Source: Octopus vulgaris (lineage: Eukaryota). Taken from it: a stretch of 64,000 bases of DNA. How positions within the stretch are numbered: the first letter of the stretch is position 1; each line of letters starts with the position of its first letter. Below, one piece after another: positions 2,736-60,252 of the stretch. The notes below the pieces were generated by a model. It searched no databases and was not told the origin of the DNA. It saw only the letters and a list, made by a program, of their open reading frames with translations. The translations under genes and the position numbers were made by a program. Location of the stretch: the NCBI GenBank assembly GCA_951406725.2, contig OX597825.1, forward strand, positions 52,514,001-52,578,000. The letters run 5' to 3'.

Positions 2736-4049
2736 AGACAGTGGTCCATATACATAAATCAGACAGATATCTTATTTTGACATGGAAAGAAACTAAGTCC
2801 TGAATAAGTAATGTATGATAAAATGGTACAGAAGAGTTTACAGGAATTCTTGTGAGTAATCATGCGGTATCCACTTACAACACACACACACACACACACA
2901 CTACCAATGCATACATCAATGCTTAAGTAAAAGTGATCAACAATGAATGGTTGTTAAATAAGCAGATCTGTGTTTGTATTTTCTGTTGTAGCTAGGTAAA
3001 ATGGGGAAAATGTGTATGAGCATGTTTGTTAGTGCAGTGTAGTCAAATTGTTAGGTTCACTTAGCAATCATTTGGCCTTGATTTCAATTCTGATACGTTG
3101 CATCTTGAACAAATGTAACTTTTATAGCCTCAGCTCAGTCCATATCTTTAGAGTGAAAGTGGGTTGGCAGGAACTGTACAAAAGCCTGTTGGATGGATTA
3201 CATCTGGAATTGAAGGGTCCACCCTTCTTGTCACACTGTGTGACATGCACTAATTCTGCCTCAGAATTAATTTGAGATTACCTAAAAACTATTTTCTCTA
3301 CACACATCACCAATATCATTTAATGAACAGCTTCGAAGCATTGACAGGATTTGATATGCTACAGGCTTGCTCTGTGCTCCAATGATTCCTTCCTATAACT
3401 GGACGCTCTCTTTAATGTCATCCTTCATACTTTGTGCATGACACTAACACTAATGAGATCACATTGAAGCTTGCAACAATAAGAGCCCAAAGGGATCTCT
3501 TTAACCAAAGGAAAATAGAAGGATGGTTCCATGATTCTAGACGGGATAACAAAGGAGAGCAAAGGAAGATGTGAGGAACAAATTTGTAACAATAAGAGAG
3601 GTCGTATTGGAGAGAGTAATAGAGTAGGCACTATTAGGAGAGGCATTTTGGCAGAGAAAAGAGGAAAAGGAAGTGATTAGTGTCAGAAATTAGTGAGAAA
3701 GGAAGGGATAGAAAGGAAAGGCAAATTGAGATGGGTAGGGCTGGGCTATCCCATATTACAAAGGTATGAAACTGTGAGGGAGAGAGGATGAGAAAAGAAG
3801 AAATAGATGAAGGGGATGATAATACAGAAGAGAGGCACTGGAGGAAAAAACAAGTGCAGGGATTATGGAGTATATCAGAGGGGGAGGTACAAGATGAGCT
3901 GTTGAGAAGATAGAGATGTGGAGAAAGGAAAAAATAAAGTAGAAAACAAATTTGGCTGAATCAGTAAATTTAGATAACAACACAACAGAAATAGTCACAG
4001 AGACAAAAACATAATGAAAACATACAAAAAAGGAAATGGAGAGACAACC

Positions 4050-4715
4050 ACTCTACAGCCAATACACAACAAAGTTCAGCAGAGAGGGTTAATATTAAAA
4101 ATGGTTCAAAATTTCTGGCTAAAATCAGAAATGGAAGGGTTGATTCTCCCTGTGCAAGATCAGTGTCTGGCAACAAACAATTTTAAGAGCAAGATAATGA
4201 AAACAGATCCTAACACCAAATACAGATTGTGCCATCAGCACCATAATATTGTTGACTGCATCATTTCTGGTTGCCCATTGCATGTCAAATCTGAACATCT
4301 ACACAGATATAATTGAGTGAGTAGCTGTATCCACTGGATAATATGCCAACATTTCAAAATGAAAGGAGACAAAAAGTACAAAAATTTACCAAACATGATA
4401 TATGACATGAAGTTGAAGACAGTCATCTGGAATGCACATGTGGAAATTGAGAGAGAAATGAAGGCAAACTAAACATTATCAAAGAGAGGAAAATAGAAAC
4501 CCTGCCTAAAAAGAAGTTGAAAGAAAACTATCAAAATCCAAGGATCTTGATATCAAAATATTCAAGAAGTAGGGGATGAAGGTAAAAATGGTGCCACTAA
4601 TAATTGAAGCATTAAGCATCATATAAAACATAGAAGACATTCGATGGCTCACAACACTACACACAGTCAAAGAACAATTCTGCTAGTTTCAGTTCATATG
4701 CTGCGCAAGACATTT
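4050..4715 (+). mobile_element. Dong/R4-clade LINE 3' fragment (zinc knuckle plus decayed restriction-like endonuclease)
   Basis: ORF 4014-4316 contains LKSEMEGLILPVQDQCLATNNF...YRLCHQHHNIVDCIISGCP...HRYN, matching the decayed CCHC region of the copy near 50580-50790; frameshifted downstream. Confidence 0.8.
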
Positions 4716-6569
4716 TTGATTCATTAGCTCAGCCCTATCTTCACAACATAGACTTTATTCACAACACACTCCCTATGTAATAAACACCCAATCATGTGAA
4801 GCAACTCCTGCAGCATATACTCTCCAAGATTTATAGCCAATAAAATAAAACAACTCACATTACATGCAATGGAACAAATACTAATATAACACACACACAA
4901 AAATGAATAACAAGTGAAAATCCATAACAATCAAACAATCTGAGGCAGAACATTATGTGTGTGTGTGTAAAATGTGCAGTCTATAAGGAAGTGTCTATGC
5001 TTCTCCAACCCCAACAAAAGATAAAATACACAATGCTGCATATACACACTGGGAACAAGGTGAAATATATGGTGCAGTGAAAAAAATCACCTGAAACCGT
5101 CAAAAAAAAAAACTGTCAAAAAAGAGAAAATAATAGTAGTCATCATTGTTATCATCATTATCTTTATTAGTATTTGTAAAGAATCTAAGTAGATTTTTAG
5201 ATGACATTTTCCTCTCCTACTTTCAAAGAAAATTCATTAATGAAATGAATGTTTATTTCTTTCAGAATGAAAATCAAAATAGAACAATTTATAAATCTGT
5301 CTTATAATTTCCAGAGAATTTTAAAGTACTCAGTATTTGAGAGATTTTCTCAAGTGTGGCTTGCCTAATGTTTTTATAGAAAGGATTCTTTTAAAAGTTA
5401 TTCCAAGACAATGGTTTAAGAAATTTGTTTTTCTATTAAAATTACAAATTGTTGAAAAGTATTTTCATATAAGAATGTACTCCATATCATGTTCTTCTCA
5501 TACTAATTAATAATTACATACCATTAGATTATATATATTGGTTCATGGGTATTGAATATTATACAAACAATAAACACGTAAAAACTAAAATACAATAAAA
5601 CTAGTACTTGTCTCAAAACAACAGTTAATAAAGTACACTAAAAAATATATCTCATAAACAGAGAGATGATGATTCCCAGTAGTTTAGAACAGATACAAGT
5701 GATTGATCTTACATCTGCTAAGCATTAAATCAATGCTGAATCTTCTGAAAGTCATCACATCTAACAGATGTCCATACTGAAGCTACTGATGATCATTTCA
5801 GCTACAAGATGTCCATATTAAAAAAGTTGTTTTTAATTATTCTTTATAACAATGTTGTTCTCCATTAAATTTTACTAAATGATTGCTGTAGTTTCTGCCT
5901 CTCATATCCATTTAGATTCACTAGCAATGTTGCTCATGAAATAAGACAATACACTTTTTTTTATTGCTTAATGAAAGGTGGGTGAAGAAAATCTTCATGA
6001 CTCTATAAAAATTATCCATAGCTGGTAAGAGGAAGGAAGGGATACTCAGAGTAGAGACATTTCCTGAATACTTGCAACTCTGCTAAAAGTACACAAGGAC
6101 CAGGTGATGATGTTAAACTGAGAAAACAGATTAAGTCTAACTCTGCTCCACCATCATCAAAATATGAGAAAAGAAAGGAAAAGAAAAAGGAACAGGAATG
6201 TGCCCTTTGATAAACTTCCATTACCAAGACTTTGGCCAACAGTTGTAGACTCAGGCCCAAGAACTCACACAGAAGGGTTAAACTTAAAACAATGTAGGTG
6301 TGAATTAAACATTTAAGGTACAAGGACAATGTATGTCTTTACACAATATTTAGATATATTTAAACCACGTTCTGAGAATATGTGGCACTGTGTAGTGACG
6401 TTACTTTGCCTGTAGCTGGAGTCCAATTGAAATATGTAAAAGAGGAATTATTTCAATTGGAATAGAAGCATCACATATAGAATAGTGCATGCCTTAGTAA
6501 CAAATCACTAGGTTACTCAGATATTGATTACCTCTATTTGCTGTAGTATTTAGGGAGCTTCACTTTGAC

Positions 6570-29246: not shown

Positions 29247-31130
29247 CTAACAAATCTACCCATCTATGATGGAGGCATTAAATCAGAAAGGAAGTCATAA
29301 CAGCAGTATTTATTGAGAAATGTGCAAATGGACTTGATAGATTACTGGGTGGTGTCTGTAACAGGATCTGGAATCGGTATCACTGAAGGGGTGTCCGATC
29401 TGATCCCGTCACATTCAATTTAGTTAGATATAACAGACGAAGTCAGGTTATCTGGGAAAGACAGCAAATTGTTGTTTATTACTCGTGATGGTGTGCGTAT
29501 TTTCTGAGGGGAAACGACAGCCGAATCTTTGTACTGCTTCTTGTTGGTTGATTGAAGTGATTCGATGTGGTCCGTTGCTAAGCCGGTCTAGAGTTCTCAG
29601 AGACTACCAAATGCACGTCTGTTCACGAGGGCTGAAAGCGCCAGAGAGAGTGAGTGAGTGGACTGTGCCTTAGGGGTCAGTTTCCTGCACATGCGCATGG
29701 GGAAGACTTCCGGTGGCCACCCGAAAGTAGTCCCATTCTGCGCATGCGCGCTGAACCTTACACAGTAGCATCACTACGTGTCTTAGAGAAATCACATTAT
29801 TGTTGGTGATACGACATTCTATTGCAGCTATATGACGTGTTTGCAACTAAGCGACATGTGAGGACTATTAACCCCTGAACTGAAATAGACTCCCAGCCTC
29901 TGTATCATGTTTATGTGGACCATTCCTAATGAAAGCGAGAGCTTCCTTTGACCACTACATAAAAAGTATTAAGAAAATAATGTTATTTAGACATACCTTT
30001 ATTTTAGTTATCTACATTATTTTACATTTGTTTACACTCTTATACATTCAAAGTTCACAAATTTCCTTATTTAAATTATGAATCATATTCCTTTTGATAT
30101 CAATATGATTACAAAACTTCTTTGTAGATGATATTTTTGTTTGGTCGACACTAATTTTCAAATTACTGGAGTTCGTTACTCTACTCATAGTGACCTCTAA
30201 TTGGCCATGTGTAAACATTGGAGTGAGTAAAAATGCACGTACACAATCCAGTGGCTACTGCTGTGGCTTGTTTGCTGTGAATGCATGAGCAGAATCTTTA
30301 GGGTTGCAAAAAATCAAACAAAGACTTACCTCTCACTGTTCTGTGTGAATAATGTCTGGATGTTCTGGTACCATGGGTTATTTTGATTGGCAAAACTGAG
30401 ATGTAAACAACATCCACTTTGATTAACCATTTCGAATCCTGCTCAAGACTGGCTCACTTCAATAACCACTAAATAATCATGCACACTATATACTGACACA
30501 CACTTTTTCCATTTTATTTTCCCTATTAACCATCTTTGCAACCCCCTTTGTATCTATGATGGGGCCATGAACTATACAATGAAAATCCAGAGTTACTCGT
30601 GGTCGGTGAATTTTTTGAAGGTGGTTTAACAATTCAATTTTCGATATCCACCATATAATCATACTTTCTGGTTTTTTAATGCTAAAAACCTTCCTGACAA
30701 CCGTCTTTGTAATCCTGGAAAATATCGTTACCATTATTCCGGCTATCTGGCCATGAAGAGGGAACAAAGAGATGGACAGACAGATGAACATAACACCCAT
30801 TATAGTAAGAAAGCAAATCTGCCCATCTATGATGGGAAATAAAGGGAACGTATCACAAATCTAAACCCTCAAAATTCATGAACTATATGGGCGGGGGTGG
30901 GGGAATCCAGAGTTAATCCTCATCTCTGGAATTGTAACAAGAAAAATCAAAACGGATTCATTAATATAAAACTCAGTATCCACTAAATAATCATACTTTT
31001 TCACATTTTTTCACTAAAAACCTTCCTGACCACCTCCTTCACAATCCCTAAAAATATCGTAACCATTGGTCCAGCTGTTTTACCATGAAGTGAGAACAGA
31101 CAGATGGACATAATGCCCATTATAGTAAGA
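29247..31130 (-). mobile_element. Helitron-type non-autonomous family, two diverged units head-to-tail
   Basis: Minus 5' ends TCTTACTATAATGGG at 30810 and 31130; 3' hairpin ccatc-ata-gatggg followed by (c/t)agatttg(c/t)t at 30811-30836 and 29247-29272; shared aaaaaccttcctgac...aaatatcgt block. Confidence 0.65.
29357..29959. mobile_element. Putative solo LTR, CpG-rich, with promoter-like motifs
   Basis: TGTAAC...CACTACA termini, ~600 bp, CpG retained relative to flanks; TGCGCATGCGC, ACTTCCGG and a minus-strand AATAAA near 29475; no clear TSD. Confidence 0.55.
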
Positions 31131-32535: not shown

Positions 32536-34298
32536 TATTATTATTTACCATACATATATATGTGTATGTGTGAGTTGTGTATATATATAAGGATATATAT
32601 ATGTATATATATGATCGCTAGTTTCTTGTCTCCCTCTACAGCTTAATCATCCGTCTGTTTTAGATTTCAACGAATTTCATTGTTTTCCCTCTATTATCAA
32701 CACAGTTATTACTATTATTATTATCATCATTATTGTTATCATCATCATCATCATCGCCGTCGTCGTCATTACAATTATCATCATGTATGGGTGCGTGTGT
32801 TTGTGTGTCTCCATTTCCTTCAGAAGTTCAAGTAAATTATGTGTCATTGACAGAATAAAGAATTACTTCCAGAGACTGAATAATTCATTACAGTCAGTGA
32901 GACAATGACTAAATAATCTCACATAGTGAACACTCAACTATTACATCACCACCACCACCACTGACACCACCATCAACACCTTAAGCTACACTGATGATGG
33001 AGATTCTGTTGGTTTTGACAATGAGCACTGAGTTGTTCAATCAACTGAAATACTTCTTCATTAAATTATCACTTAAGTGGTTGAGTATTCCAAGGATGAA
33101 GCTCTCCTTAACAAAATTCACAAGCCAAATGAGGGTAGCACAATATGTAATAAGGCTGCACCTTTTAATTATATATATAATCCACCCAATCAGATTTCAT
33201 GTAGTTTCACTCCTAAGGCTGTGATTGATCCAACAAAACGGTAAAAGACATTTGGCCTAGATGTCAAACAGCTGGATTGAACCCAAGATCTTGTGATTGT
33301 AATGCAAACTCATAAGCCTTTACTACACCACTAAAGACTTAATCATGTATGTAGTGTATCTAGGATCAGCTCAGTTGGGCCCTTTGCTGATGGTGCATGT
33401 TAGCAGCATCAATGAAGTTACCATTTTTGTGGAGTGTTTGTTAATCAAACAATTTTCTGGGCAAGACATCAAGTAGTACAGCTCCAGCTCATGTGTTAAG
33501 TAGTTTAGGGAGTGTGGAGTTGCTCCTTAATTATCACTACTCCCAAGTCCACTTTGGTCTGAGATGGCAGTATTGTTAAGGGCCTTAGTTACTGGGTAAA
33601 TAGTGGGAGCTGATCTTGTGGCTAAGGCATGCAGGACTTGGAGAAGGACTGGTCCATACATGTATCACACTGGCCCCACTGATGTTGAGCATGCTCTGAT
33701 GTCATGTGAACCAGTACCACTGTGTAAAGATTATATAGGCCCTGTGACTCAGAGGGAAGCTCATGGAAGAAGGAAACTAGCAGAGTGAACTGTAAATAAA
33801 CTGAAAGAGGGTATAACTCTACTGTAGCTTGTCCCTCCTTCATAACCAGCACTAAAAAAAACAAAAAAACTCGGAAGCTTAAGATTTTGATATAAAGATT
33901 TCTGATTACAGATGTCTGTAGTAATAACACAAGAAGTGAGAGAGTGAGTGAGTGTGTTCAAGACAGGTTAACTAGGCAAAGCCCACAACCTTCTCTAAGC
34001 TATACTACTTAGAACAGAAGCTGAATAGTTGGATTCAGCTCTCTAAATACTTCAAAATCAATTTCAGAGAAGTACTTTAATTTTAGTAAGGAGTTGTTTA
34101 GGCTGAACCAGCAAAATATCAGACAAGAAGACATGAACTGTTTATCCTTTGCAACATTATTATCAGTCTGAATATGCTCAACGTACATTCAAACTGGGGA
34201 ACAAGCTACTCACTGCATTTTGTCACAGAGAATATATCTCACTTGTTGACAAATGGTGTGTATACATTTAGATCAGCTCGCAGCACCACCTACTTAGA

Positions 34299-34346
34299 CT
34301 GTGAAATATTAACATTTCAGAGTAGTTGTCTCCTCATCAGTTACAG
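34299..34346 (-). ncRNA. Minimal type-I hammerhead ribozyme, core intact
   Basis: Minus strand ctgtaa-CTGATGA-ggag acaacta ctct-GAAA-tgttaata-TT-tcacag; the consensus of both arms gives palindromic stem III ATGTTAACAT and perfect stems I and II. Confidence 0.75.
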
Positions 34347-34403
34347 ACACTAAGACAAATGGTGTGTATTCACCTAGATCAACTCGCAGCACCACCTTAG
34401 TGT

Positions 34404-34451
34404 CTGTGATTGATGAGGAGACAACTACTCCAAAATGCTAACATTTCACAG
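34404..34451 (+). ncRNA. Mirror hammerhead copy with core mutations (probably inactive)
   Basis: ctgtga-TTGATGA-ggag acaacta ctcc-AAAA-tgctaaca-TT-tcacag (C3>U, G12>A). Confidence 0.6.
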
Positions 34452-35337
34452 TCTAGGTAGGTGGCACTGCGAGTTGATCTAGGTGTATACACACCATTTG
34501 TCAACAAGTGAGATATATTTTCCATGATAAAATGTAGTGTGTAACTTGTTCTCCAGTTTGAACGGGCATCAAACATGTTTGGACTGTTGATAACATTGCA
34601 ATTTCATTTATCACTGCTTAGTGCTTCTCTTACATGTTTATCCTTTGTCCAGCAGTGAAGATGGCACAACTGTACATGACATATGCAAATAAACACTAAC
34701 ATTGTCTTCTTAATGATCAAAATTCCATGTCTTTCTACATAACTATCACAGCACTTTACTATGATGTTTACATGCAGCAGGAGTCATTGGGTGATTTATG
34801 CAAGTATTTTGTTCTTTTATTCAATAATCCAAATACATTGACATCATTTTTCAAAATTTATCACCTCAACTATAATATAATTGATCAATATTGATTATAT
34901 CTAGCCATGCTACCCTATACCATAACATCATATCCTACCACTTTCACATCTTACTATATCCTCATCATATTCCACTCCATCACACTACAGAACATCACAT
35001 CCCATCTTACATCCTGCCACACCAAACCCTACCTCTCAGCGACAACCAGTTCCACACTACGTCATAGTTCAGTTCTTATTTTAGTGATGACACTTCTCTC
35101 ATGCAACCATGTATCCTGAATCACTGATCAACTGTGTCAATATGGACACTCACACACACTTGTGCACACAGGTCTTCCGTGCAATTTCTGTCAACAAAAT
35201 TCCATTCACAAGGAATTGGCTAAATAAGGGAACAAAGACACTTGTCAGAAACAGAATTAAGCACCAGGTGTTTGCAAAGTCAACATCTTAATTAGACAAA
35301 TATGAGTCTGTCTGTCTCTTTCTCTCTCTCCCTGTCT

Positions 35338-46874: not shown

Positions 46875-47740
46875 AATGTGCAACTATGTGGCATGATAAT
46901 AGATGTTGCAATATCAGACAATTCGAGGGTGAAATGTAAGGAGACAGAAAAGAGTGAGAAATACCAGCCACTACAGGAAAAGATAGGAAATTTATGGGGC
47001 ATGAGGAAAATAATGATGATACCTGTGGTAAATGGAGCATTAGGAGTAGTTTTCAAGGGTTTTGAAAAACAAAGAATATTGGAGCTACTGTCAGGCTCGA
47101 GGTGGTCCAGAACATAGCATTGTTGGGTACAGCTCACATTCTAAAGAGAGTATTGTATCGTTGAGTCACAGGGGAAGGCACTGCTTGAAACCTTTGGCAA
47201 TTTGGTATTGTCTCCTTTCAAACTACCACAAATCTGAAGGCATCATCGAAAATGATAATGCAAAGATCTTGTGGGAGTTTATGATTCAGTGCAACCATGA
47301 GATAGAAAATAATAAGCCAGACAAATTGTTATTTGTCAAAGAAAGCAAACTATGCTGGATCATAGATATAGCATCCCCAGTTGACAACAAGGTATGCAAT
47401 AAGGAAGAAAGAAAAGTTGACAGATGTGACAGGTTCGCTTGGGAGGTTAAGCAGTTGTGGTCAATGAAAATGGTGGTAATAGTAACAATGATTGTTGGAG
47501 CCCTGGGAACAGTGAGTAAAAATCTTGAGAAATACATGGAACAAATAGGGGCTGCAATAAGGGTGGAGCACTTGCAGAAAACAGCACTGCTTGGAAAACA
47601 GCACTGCTCCAGAAGGTGCTCGAAAAATAAGAGGTGTTACCTTAGTTCACTGGTAGTGAACAGCTGATATCATAGTACATCTCCAGTGTTAGAATCAGTG
47701 CAAAGGCAATAATAATAATAATAGCAATAACAACAATAAT
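46875..47740 (+). mobile_element. Two tandem Dong/R4 LINE 3' ends (restriction-like endonuclease) with TAA tail
   Basis: First copy IIDVAISDNSRVKCKETEKSEKY...GALG; second copy ILWEFMIQCNHEIENNKPD...IIDIA...EHLQKTALLG (PD..D..K); (TAA)n at 47708-47740. Confidence 0.88.
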
Positions 47741-49036: not shown

Positions 49037-51411
49037 GCTTCTTTCAGTTTCCAGCTACCGAATCCACTCACAACCCGAAGCTATAGTAGAAGGCACTTGC
49101 CCAAGGTGCCATGCAGTGGGACTGTACTCAGAACAATATGGTTGGTAAGCAAGCTTCTTACCACACAGCCATTTTTATAATAGCGAATAGAGCATATGAA
49201 TTCTTGGACAATAGGAAGTTATTCCCAGTGGAACAAAATGGATGTAAAAGGAGTGCATATGGAAGTAAGGACCAATTACTGATTGATGAAATGGTCATTG
49301 AAAGTTGCAATTCCAAACACAGAAAACTTAGAACCACTTAGATTACAAGAAAACTTTTGACAGTTTCCCTCGTGCACGGATCATCAAGGCCCTGGAAATT
49401 TACAAGACAGCTCAAATAATTGTGAACTTTCTATAAGTAATCAGGAATTCTTGGAGAACTAGCTTCATTTTAAACCATACATAAGTATCAGTATCGTCTG
49501 TGGTATCATTTCAAGGTTACTCATTATCACCATTACTATTCTGCCTCACCCTGTTCCCATTATCCACACAACTGAATAATGCTAAGAGAAAGTTTCAGAT
49601 CTTTGACCAGAAAATTAGTCATCTATTCTCTATGGATGATCTAAAATTGTTTGTCAAAAAGGACAAAGAATTAGAAGAGCTCCTAAATACTATCAAAGAA
49701 TTCAGCTCCAATATAGGTATGGAGTTTGGACTTGATAAATGTGCAAAGGTTACTTTCAAAGCAGGAAAGTTCATAAAGGCAGAAAACATAGAACTTGATA
49801 CTACCAGTTATTCGAAAACTAGGCCAATCCGAAGTATAAAAATATCTGGAAACCAATGAAAGTTGATAGTATCCAGAACTCTAAAATGAAAGAGAAATTC
49901 CACAAGGAAAGGGTAAGAATGGTCCTAAACTCAGAATTAAATTCTGCTAACAGAATTAATGCGATCAATTCTTTGGCCATACCAGCAACCACTTATATCT
50001 TCAGTATCATAAAGTGGAGTTTCACTGACATGCAGAATATGGATGGAAAGATTCTTAAAATCCTTACAAGGCACCAAATGCACCATCCAAAATCAGATAT
50101 AGATAAGATTTATCTCACAAGAAAAAGAGGAGGAAGAGGCCTGATACAGCTCAAACAAGCCTTCAAATCAGCAATAATAGTCCTTGAAATATGCCATAAT
50201 ACAGCAAGTGATGTGCTCTCATAAACTACACTGAAGCATGAAGATTCCAAGCAAGCTTCAATCATGAAGCTTAGCAAGAAATTTAAAAATTCTCTTGGCC
50301 TACAAGTTAACAATAAGAATGACCAAAGACACCCAAATACTGACAGACCTACTATTGCTTCTCCTGATTTAGAAACTAACAATTAGAAAGACCAGTGAGA
50401 TCCAAATAGTGATAAACCTATTACTGATGCAAAAAACATCAAACAAAAAGCAAAGAAGGCTTGCATGAGTAATATTGAAGACAACTGGTAAGGTAAACTC
50501 CTGCATGGAAAATACCCCAACTGCCTGTCCAAGCCAGATATTGATCAACATCTAATGCACCAATGGCTACAAAGGACAAGTCTAAAAGAGGAAACCGAAA
50601 CGTTTTGTTATTGCAGTGCAAGATCAGAGCTTACCTACCAGAAACTGCCATGCAAACGTCCTCAAAGTTGAATCTCAAAGTTGAATCTCACTCCTCATGC
50701 AGAATTTGCAGAGACAATTGATCATGTTGTTTCTGGCTGCCCAGTCCTTGCTGAAAAGGAGTTCCTCATAAGACATGACAGACTGGGGCAGTACATCCAC
50801 TGGAATGCTTGAAAATACTACAAAATTAAATCCCGTGATAAGTGGTGCAGGTATCATCCAGTGGATGTAGTAAAAGGCAAGGGCATCACCATCCTTTGGA
50901 ACTTCCCAATACAAACAGACAGACAAATTGGCTCCTATCAACTAATCATTGTGATCAAGGACTACAACAGAGGAACTTGTATGTTAATAGATATGTCTGT
51001 CCCACAAGATCAAAATATCTCAAGAAAAGAATATGAAAGCTTTCTCACCAGAAAGATCTGCAAATTGAAATCATAAAAATGTGTAAGCTTAGTACTACGA
51101 TAATAACAGTAGTAACTGGTGTGGTGAGAATGATAAAGAAGGGAGCTTAGAAGTATATTAAGCAACTCCCTGGTAACTCCAATCTTTGTGAACTACAAAA
51201 GATAACCTTTATGGGTACGGCCCATATACTATGGAAAGGAATCTCCATCTAAAATGGAATAAATGTGGTGATAATTTTAGCATGCATAGCAAAAAAAAAA
51301 AGTGCACTTGCTACTCTTGGCCTCCAGTGGATGCCAGGTACTAAGGCAGCTGAAATAAAGTTCTAATGAAAGGAAACCATAAATGATAATAATAATGATA
51401 ATAATAATATA

Positions 51412-59019: not shown

Positions 59020-60252
59020 CATGGTCTGATCAATAAGTATCTGGACTGTTGCCATAGTAATGAAGCTAATGCTTACAGAGTAAAGTTGCTTGGGACAGAT
59101 TGAACTTAAACTTTGCATAGACCCTAAGTTTTACCATTCTAGCTCATTTCCACTGTTTACAGCAGTGCTTGGAAGGAATGTATGTAGCATGTGATCATCA
59201 CACTGACCATAATAGAGAAAGTTGAGCAGAGAATCTGCATCAAATTTTGCCAAAAGCTTGGTGATACCTGGTCAGAGGCCTATGCAAAGTTGCAGAAAGT
59301 GTATGGAGAGGAGTACATGAGCCACACACAAGTATAGGAGTGGTTCAGATATTTCTGAGATGGCTGACAAAATGTCAATAGTGACAAACGTTTTGGGAGA
59401 CCTGCGACCAGCAGAACTGAGAAAAACATTTCAGATGTGTGTGCAGTTGTGAGAAGAAATTGTCGATTCCCCATCCATGAGTTATCAGAGAATGTGCATA
59501 TTATTTACAGTTCAGTCCATAAACACTGAAGATTTGGGTATGAGATGTGTGTCTGCCAAGTTTGTGCCAAAACTGCTTTCAGCTCACCAAAAAGACACTT
59601 GGGTTTCTGTTGCACAAGATCTCCTTGATTGTGTCAATAATGATGAAAAGATGATGAATTGTGGGTCTATGGCTATGACCACGAAACAAAGGCTCAGTCT
59701 TAACAGCAGAAGACCCCAACCTCTCTGAGACCAAAAAATGTATGAATGAGTAGATGCAATGTGAAGACATTGCTGACCCTTTTCTTTGATTTCAAGGGGA
59801 CTTTTCAGACAGTAAACAAGGAGTACTACCATGACATTTTGCAGGATGCTATTCATCAGAAAAGGTCACAATTGCATGCTTCTGGTGGGTGGCAGTTGCA
59901 CCATGACAACTCACTTGCCCATGTTTTTGGGTAGGCACAGCATTCCCCAGATTCAACAGGCACCATTTTCCCCAGATCTTGCCCCTTGTGACATTTTCCT
60001 CTTTCCAAAAATCAAATCTCACTTGAAAGGAAGAAGATTTCAGGACGTCGAGGAAATCAGTCAATGTGGCAAGGCAGCTGCTGATTATCACGGGAAACAA
60101 GTTCCAAGAATGCTTCCATTAATGGAAACAATGCTCGATTAAGTGTGTGGCTTCCGAAGGGGACTTCTTTGAAGGAGATTAAATGTCAAATTGCTATGTG
60201 TTGTAGTTTTGTTTTTATAGCACCAGTCTGGATATTTATTGATCAGATCTTG
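59020..60252 (+). mobile_element. Decayed near-full-length mariner transposon
   Basis: TA|catggtctgatcaataagtatctggactg and cagtctggatatttattgatcagatcttg TIRs; EQRICIKFCQKLG, SAKFVPKLL, DELWVYGYDHETK, HHDNSLAH, PFSPDLAPCDIFLFPKIK. Confidence 0.92.

Follow-up and report, generated by a model that had tools for sequence, protein, structure and literature searches.

The window analysed here, a stretch of 64,000 nucleotides from Octopus vulgaris, contains a 483-bp insertion (34152-34634) that is flanked by identical 13-bp target-site duplications at 34139-34151 and 34635-34647 (plus strand). The insertion is built around two inverted arms of 206 nt (34149-34354 and 34396-34601), which are 83% complementary and lie 41 nt apart, in agreement with the ~205-bp arms of the preliminary description. 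Aligned to the consensus of the repeat family described below, both arms cover unit positions 1-206, the left arm on the minus strand, where it stops at a tail-less end (~206), and the right arm on the plus strand. The insertion is asymmetric: only the right arm continues into a 33-nt “tail” (34602-34634, plus strand), which aligns to the family consensus as unit positions 207-239. Its end had been placed at 34601, but the element continues through this tail to the right-hand duplication. The last 3 nt of the left duplication overlap the end of the left arm and constitute a microhomology.

The sequence between the arms had been taken for a loop, but is a third copy of the same repeat. These central 44 nt (34354-34397, minus strand) represent an additional antisense copy of unit positions 64-107, form a 91% direct repeat of 34248-34291, and their identity is backed by a three-way comparison. 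The junction of this segment with the right arm matches, to within 3 nt, the register in which the extended stem I of the unit pairs, and the segment is likely the product of a cDNA fold-back. Read along the plus strand, the left duplication is followed by unit positions 206 to 2 and then 107 to 64, both in antisense, by positions 3 to 239 in sense and by the right duplication. The locus lacks a direct tandem, and each arm is shorter than one full unit. It thus falls outside the “active” retrozymes, which the available part of a preprint defines by two consecutive units with complete hammerheads (10.64898/2026.07.22.740005).

The inverted layout is not an assembly artefact, because contigs of two runs span the centre of the inversion. 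One contig of run X15 covers 34218-34503 with nine differing letters, one of run X19, labelled as another organism, covers 34325-34460 with seven differing letters, and in both runs other contigs cross both outer junctions; the X19 contig extends 29 letters to the left of the first inner junction, slightly short of the bridging limit. A scan for a host gene around the locus, covering 70 of 160 low-complexity-filtered frames, gave a single match, one RT fragment. Several other candidate repeat remnants lie in the window. A partial tandem at 30459-31130 (spacing 320-332, 74% identity) ends directly in a TA microsatellite and resembles another pseudo-LTR remnant. Broken LINE-like coding fragments are found at 49485-50224, 47050-47667 and 3978-4316, where 49485-49856 matches RVT_1 and the rest was judged by eye, and a frame at 59816-60142, with no Pfam match, resembles by eye a fragment of a mariner transposase.

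Each arm carries a type I hammerhead motif beside the centre, and both motifs, which the preliminary description had pointed out, are real. The minus-strand motif (34299-34346) has canonical core bases, with CUGAUGA at 34340-34334, GAAA at 34318-34315 and a predicted cut after 34305 (AUU). Its core had been called intact, which holds for the bases, but the three stems and the cleavage site are altered: the second pair of stem I is an A-C mismatch, a G-U pair replaces G10.1-C11.1 in stem II, another G-U pair is present in stem III, and the cleavage-site triplet is AUU rather than the AUC of the family. The predicted pair probabilities of stems I and II are 0.00-0.13, even without the other arm. 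The plus-strand motif (34404-34451) reads UUGAUGA at 34410-34416 and AAAA at 34432-34435, and hence carries C3U and G12A, as claimed; its stem III also contains a C-A mismatch. According to the available part of PMC6155905, G12 acts as the general base of the hammerhead, and the plus-strand hammerhead is predicted to be inactive. A consensus of the two arms indeed restores complete stems and the palindrome AUGUUAACAU. At E<=10, none of the four Rfam matches in 34100-34700 was to a hammerhead model, and the hammerhead assignment therefore rests on covariation within the family. The whole window gave 166 Rfam matches, those among the 150 listed being microsatellite-type miRNA or snoRNA matches below the gathering score.

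A first look at the same genome (2.8 Gb) returned 566 candidate copies, 40 of which were scored. Direct tandems set the unit length at 338-343 nt, and the 343-nt consensus holds no open reading frame, the longest stop-free frame being 68 aa. Folded as a circle, the consensus reaches -137 kcal/mol, compared with -83.0+/-5.5 for 60 shuffles, and one real unit folds at z=-4.46. The hammerhead has a stem I of 6 bp with a 25-bp extension; its stem II is 4 bp long and its stem III palindromic. Its consensus pairs fully, and the three helices, the open helix I and covariation identify it as type I. In the 71 cores, which come from 49 loci, the inner pair of stem III is C-G (36), U-A (29) or other (6), and the free position N7 is mostly U (40) or A (29). 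The helices are 87-96% paired in 44 aligned copies (stem III C-G in 21, U-A in 17), and 46 cells of this alignment are changed on both sides of a pair, as opposed to 21.1+/-4.7 in shuffles, none of 500 being as high, although relatedness alone can beat this control value. The states of stem III track subfamilies and thus reflect few independent events. There is one core in the sense polarity of the unit and none in the antisense polarity; eight of the 49 core-bearing loci have two cores in direct orientation, and 14 have cores on both strands. A mean non-CpG divergence from the consensus of 8.7% indicates that the family is old.

With its non-coding unit of 343 bp (150-450 bp in such retrozymes), a single type I hammerhead, head-to-tail repeats, a short palindromic helix III, a strongly self-paired monomer, target-site duplications of more than 4 bp and Penelope-like elements (PLEs) in the same genome, the family resembles the metazoan non-LTR retrozymes, as far as the available parts of the respective papers describe them (PMC7229834; 10.64898/2026.07.22.740005); units of mussel retrozymes measure 350-390 bp in the same texts. 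Metazoan retrozymes form long tandems there, while the copies sampled here are short (the longest one-direction run is ~2 units) and mostly two-armed; the U4C core and the age of the family also set it apart. In the accessible text of the preprint, the word “inverted” occurs in one reference title only. Our literature search, mostly of open-access main texts whose supplements could list variants, found no paper on the 343-nt family or on U4C in retrozymes. About 6% of RNA run X20, from another organism, yielded 31 family-like reads, 94% of which continue into unlike sequence; they show no pile-up of ends, none is at least 95% alike and none lies on the unique sequence adjoining the element, in a type of library that need not contain small circles. 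Two pairs of loci, L003 and L004 (13 kb apart) and L092 and L093 (4 kb apart), share their match pattern and represent local segmental duplications carrying the element.

Conservation of CUGAUGA and GAAA throughout the family had been expected for the element as first proposed, an expectation that is partly refuted. GAAA and the remaining core features (NUH included) are indeed conserved, but the family core reads CCGA(U/A)GA rather than CUGANGA and departs from the canonical core at position 4 only (U4C). Among 14 exact matches in the whole genome, 13 have C at position 4 and none has U; of the 71 cores, 51 have C there. Positions 4-5 read CG, CA and TG in 15, 8 and 2 of 25 matches, and CG, TG and CA in 16, 11 and 9 of the 40 cores found by similarity alone; three control CpG sites behave alike (CG/TG/CA 18/9/10, 18/7/10 and 23/9/7). 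Because positions 4-5 vary like control CpG sites and nearly all exact matches have C4, CCGA(U/A)GA must have been the core of the family ancestor. The window arms cluster with the CCGAUGA subfamily, and U4 in both arms is likely the result of CpG deamination, which may have struck the source copy or the copy already inserted.

A looser pattern retrieved 46 matches, 20 of them with U4, nearly all (19) as CUGAAGA; most of the U4 matches that were examined belong to a related subfamily, which is ~64-78% identical to the consensus and has a different stem III. This canonical CUGAAGA core is found at L085, L092, L098, L102, L111 and L114, together with the stem III UGCUUGCA. The variant CCAAAGA (G5A with A7) occurs ten times among the 71 cores, versus five times for CCAAUGA, and may be due to nothing more than CpG decay or to a sublineage that multiplied despite an inactive core. 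U4C is a viable natural variant, which in the available part of PMC3088659 lowers activity in vitro yet permits viroid infectivity; the U4C core of the family may be weak.

Among 57 loci of the family, 32 are divergent (back-to-back), 24 have a single orientation, one is complex and none is convergent, proportions that are not genome-wide rates, since the loci were chosen by best similarity or core patterns, favouring long, well-kept copies. Duplicates (L004, L029, L032, L038, L045, L047) were dropped from this set, and only seven close, non-redundant loci were added from 30 found with the looser pattern. The inverted loci of this sample and the contigs of X15 and X19 dispose of the concern that the inversion is confined to this locus or this assembly. 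Head-to-tail runs of the unit extend up to 675 nt. The divergent loci are 176-862 nt long, and their inner junctions differ at every locus.

The outer ends, by comparison, cluster at unit positions ~206 and ~242, 36 nt apart. Each of the 17 scorable divergent loci combines one ~206 end with one ~242 end, and two ends of a kind occur in none, given end classes (195-217 and 229-251) that were set after seeing the data. The other 15 of the 32 divergent loci are unscorable, one or both of their ends lying outside these classes, and L050 (192/213) comes close to having two ends of the same class. Abutting duplications of 8-15 bp (score >=8) flank 10 of the 17 two-ended loci, as opposed to 2 of 272 swapped-flank controls; a convincing duplication is absent in the remaining seven. 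Finally, 10 of 32 inner junctions have an end at positions 52-83. A clustering of inner junctions at stem I is suggestive, but is biased by the choice of loci and not claimed here.

We consider it very probable that the locus is an old, neutrally decaying insertion of a protein-free repeat of ~343 nt that carries a type I hammerhead motif and is likely a non-LTR retrozyme, and that a Penelope-type RT-endonuclease, using both strands of a staggered cut as primers, likely produced the back-to-back arms. The locus shows an inverted 5'-truncated copy and a tail within the range of 30-40 bp at one end, which is the scar of PLE insertions in the available part of PMC8557442. The Penelope enzyme, as far as the accessible text of PMC11167929 goes, cleaves both strands and extends each of them, and the tail is bounded by two RT start sites inside the element. 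The likeness to PLE insertions in these two sources thus includes an inverted copy adjoining the 5' end, the 30-40-bp tail, two internal start sites, extension of both strands and an AT-rich target; the element described here differs in that it carries no RT/GIY-YIG ORF. The arms use different start sites in all 17 scorable loci, whereas the Anolis enzyme in vitro showed no difference between the strands in its use of start sites, according to the same part of PMC11167929.

Under this mechanism, a Penelope-type endonuclease would cut the two strands ~13 nt apart, and cDNA synthesis would start at unit position ~240 from one DNA end and, aided at this locus by the 3 nt of microhomology, at ~206 from the other. 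The template could be either a circle or an uncut multimer. Both cDNAs would extend through the ribozyme to positions 1-3; the right-hand cDNA would then fold back on its own copy of stem I (position 1 pairing with 62), copy positions 64-107 and be joined to the left-hand cDNA. A second hammerhead would be a by-product of every insertion in which both cDNAs extend far enough. The locus has behaved as inert DNA ever since it was inserted, and a read-through transcript would form a duplex of ~200 bp and not cleave itself.

We infer a Penelope-type enzyme from the insertion scar only, because the search for an autonomous partner whose pLTR matches the unit was negative. The genome harbours many RT+GIY-YIG elements, some with open frames of 781 aa, and 25 sampled GIY-YIG loci showed no DNA similarity to the 343-nt unit. 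With one genomic PLE ORF as query, tblastn gave no RT/GIY-YIG match beside the 57 loci (~3 kb each) or in the window. The young family with 781-aa frames was considered as the autonomous partner, but it ends in TA microsatellites, its pLTR lacks a hammerhead by core regex, and a partnership is unsupported. One young PLE of the genome, L082:1745-4087 and 4788-5172 (C16), has an open 781-aa RT+GIY-YIG frame, an upstream frame of 359 aa and a 385-bp terminal repeat, which is 99% identical, ends in a TA microsatellite and contains no core by simple regex; many near-identical copies exist.

The preliminary description had offered, as a simpler reading, an inverted Penelope pseudo-LTR. The inverted insertion of Penelope type stands, but the unit itself is non-coding and retrozyme-like, and the search with one query protein found no RT/GIY-YIG ORF beside any of the 57 loci. 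A closely related alternative would view the unit as the solo pseudo-LTR of an autonomous PLE whose ORF copies are rare, decayed or missed, and the locus as a doubly 5'-truncated PLE insertion. The signature of tail, inversion and duplication is the same as in PLEs, and retrozymes have been reported as derivatives of PLE pLTRs, according to the available part of the preprint (10.64898/2026.07.22.740005). Yet upstream of a unit another unit is found, and not coding sequence (in runs up to 675 nt), the tblastn search with the PLE ORF remained without a match in the 57 loci, and the hammerhead of canonical size, the 25-bp extended stem and the self-paired unit also speak against a solo pLTR. The unit fits non-LTR retrozymes better, and we regard the alternative as unlikely.

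Hardly credible is a hairpin that formed after insertion, by local inverted duplication or a second insertion, or a fold-back DNA transposon (MITE). The single 13-bp duplication frames both arms together, 17 loci share one polarity and one pair of ends, and the termini, with a 33-nt tail on one side, are not mirror images; the lengths of 176-862 nt likewise speak against the fixed ends of a MITE, and a fold-back DNA transposon was rejected on both counts. What could be cited for a post-insertion origin is that the arms have few template-specific changes in common, with one rare non-CpG change, which is within chance. A single template for both arms was also considered: the arms share five C-to-T changes and one subfamily change, yet four of these are CpG changes, and a common template is unproven. 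The shared CpG changes match the decay rates of the arms themselves (8/10 and 5/10).

The preliminary description had further proposed an ancestral element that encodes a ribozyme whichever strand is transcribed and that is switched off by the long hairpin. Both motifs are present, the full hairpin folds at -289 kcal/mol, cores on both strands are found at 14 of the 49 core-bearing loci, and the locus is retained in a second organism. Nevertheless, a functional two-strand element is very improbable. The arms are divergent, and read-through from either side thus makes the antisense arm first, so that the ribozyme is predicted never to fold in such transcripts: in both full transcripts and five co-transcriptional prefixes of the minus strand, the stem probabilities of seven hammerhead pairs are 0.00, as computed for equilibrium folding and not for kinetics. 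If transcription started in the centre, stems I and II of the minus copy would form with the probabilities of 0.00-0.13 given above, and the plus copy would fold, but without C3 and G12. The 31 reads of run X20, thin evidence from ~6% of a run of another organism, likewise include none at least 95% alike and none on adjoining unique sequence.

Nor do the arms bear marks of a conserved switch. There is no homogenisation or compensatory bias between them, and their mismatches favour neither strand, with 15 G-U pairs when read on the plus strand and 16 when read on the minus. They differ at 25 of 184 non-CpG sites (13.6%), compared with a between-locus mean of 15.2% (5th-95th percentile 11-21%), and from the consensus at 13/184 (left arm) and 16/184 (right arm). 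Compared with the second organism, 7 of 136 positions (5.1%) are changed in the centre, a rate like that of the flanks (5.5-6.8%). Nothing in these comparisons points to selection on the hairpin, and its decay is neutral. The insertion would be roughly twice as old as the split of the two organisms, because each arm has changed by ~7%, and each lineage between the organisms by ~3%.

In ambisense-ribozyme circular RNAs, such as viroid-like agents and ambiviruses, both ribozymes have a set place in a single replicating RNA. The locus shares with them a ribozyme motif on each strand of one stretch, and a resemblance had been noted. It does not extend to membership: in the unit described here, one polarity alone has a core, and the second copy results from an inversion in the genome, with a junction that varies from locus to locus, which also argues against an ancestral element with a ribozyme in either strand. 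Closer to the present case are Schistosoma PLEs, in which the available part of PMC4209133 describes hammerhead pairs on opposite strands, 100-700 bp apart; these hammerheads are minimal and reside in pLTRs, in contrast to the full-size motif in a non-coding unit found here. As a dead copy of a repeat, the locus illustrates that ribozymes on both genomic strands need not mean an ambisense element.

The scars of the family, with their ~206 and ~242 ends, duplications of 8-15 bp and consistently divergent arms, provide genomic evidence for a Penelope-type mobilisation of animal retrozymes, which has hitherto been proposed mostly from phylogeny. The use of one of each of two start sites is testable in the existing in vitro Penelope system. 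Tentatively, and with more doubt than confidence, we suggest how a retrozyme lineage in which C took the place of the uridine-turn base U4 might have spread to hundreds of sites: a Penelope RT dimer would bind a single RNA molecule (uncut or circular) at two fixed positions separated by 36 nt, each serving one DNA strand, such that mirror-image ribozyme pairs would be the standard product and fast self-cleavage would be dispensable or even selected against. The U4C family and the related subfamily with a canonical CUGAAGA core invite a comparison to find out how much cleavage retrozymes need.
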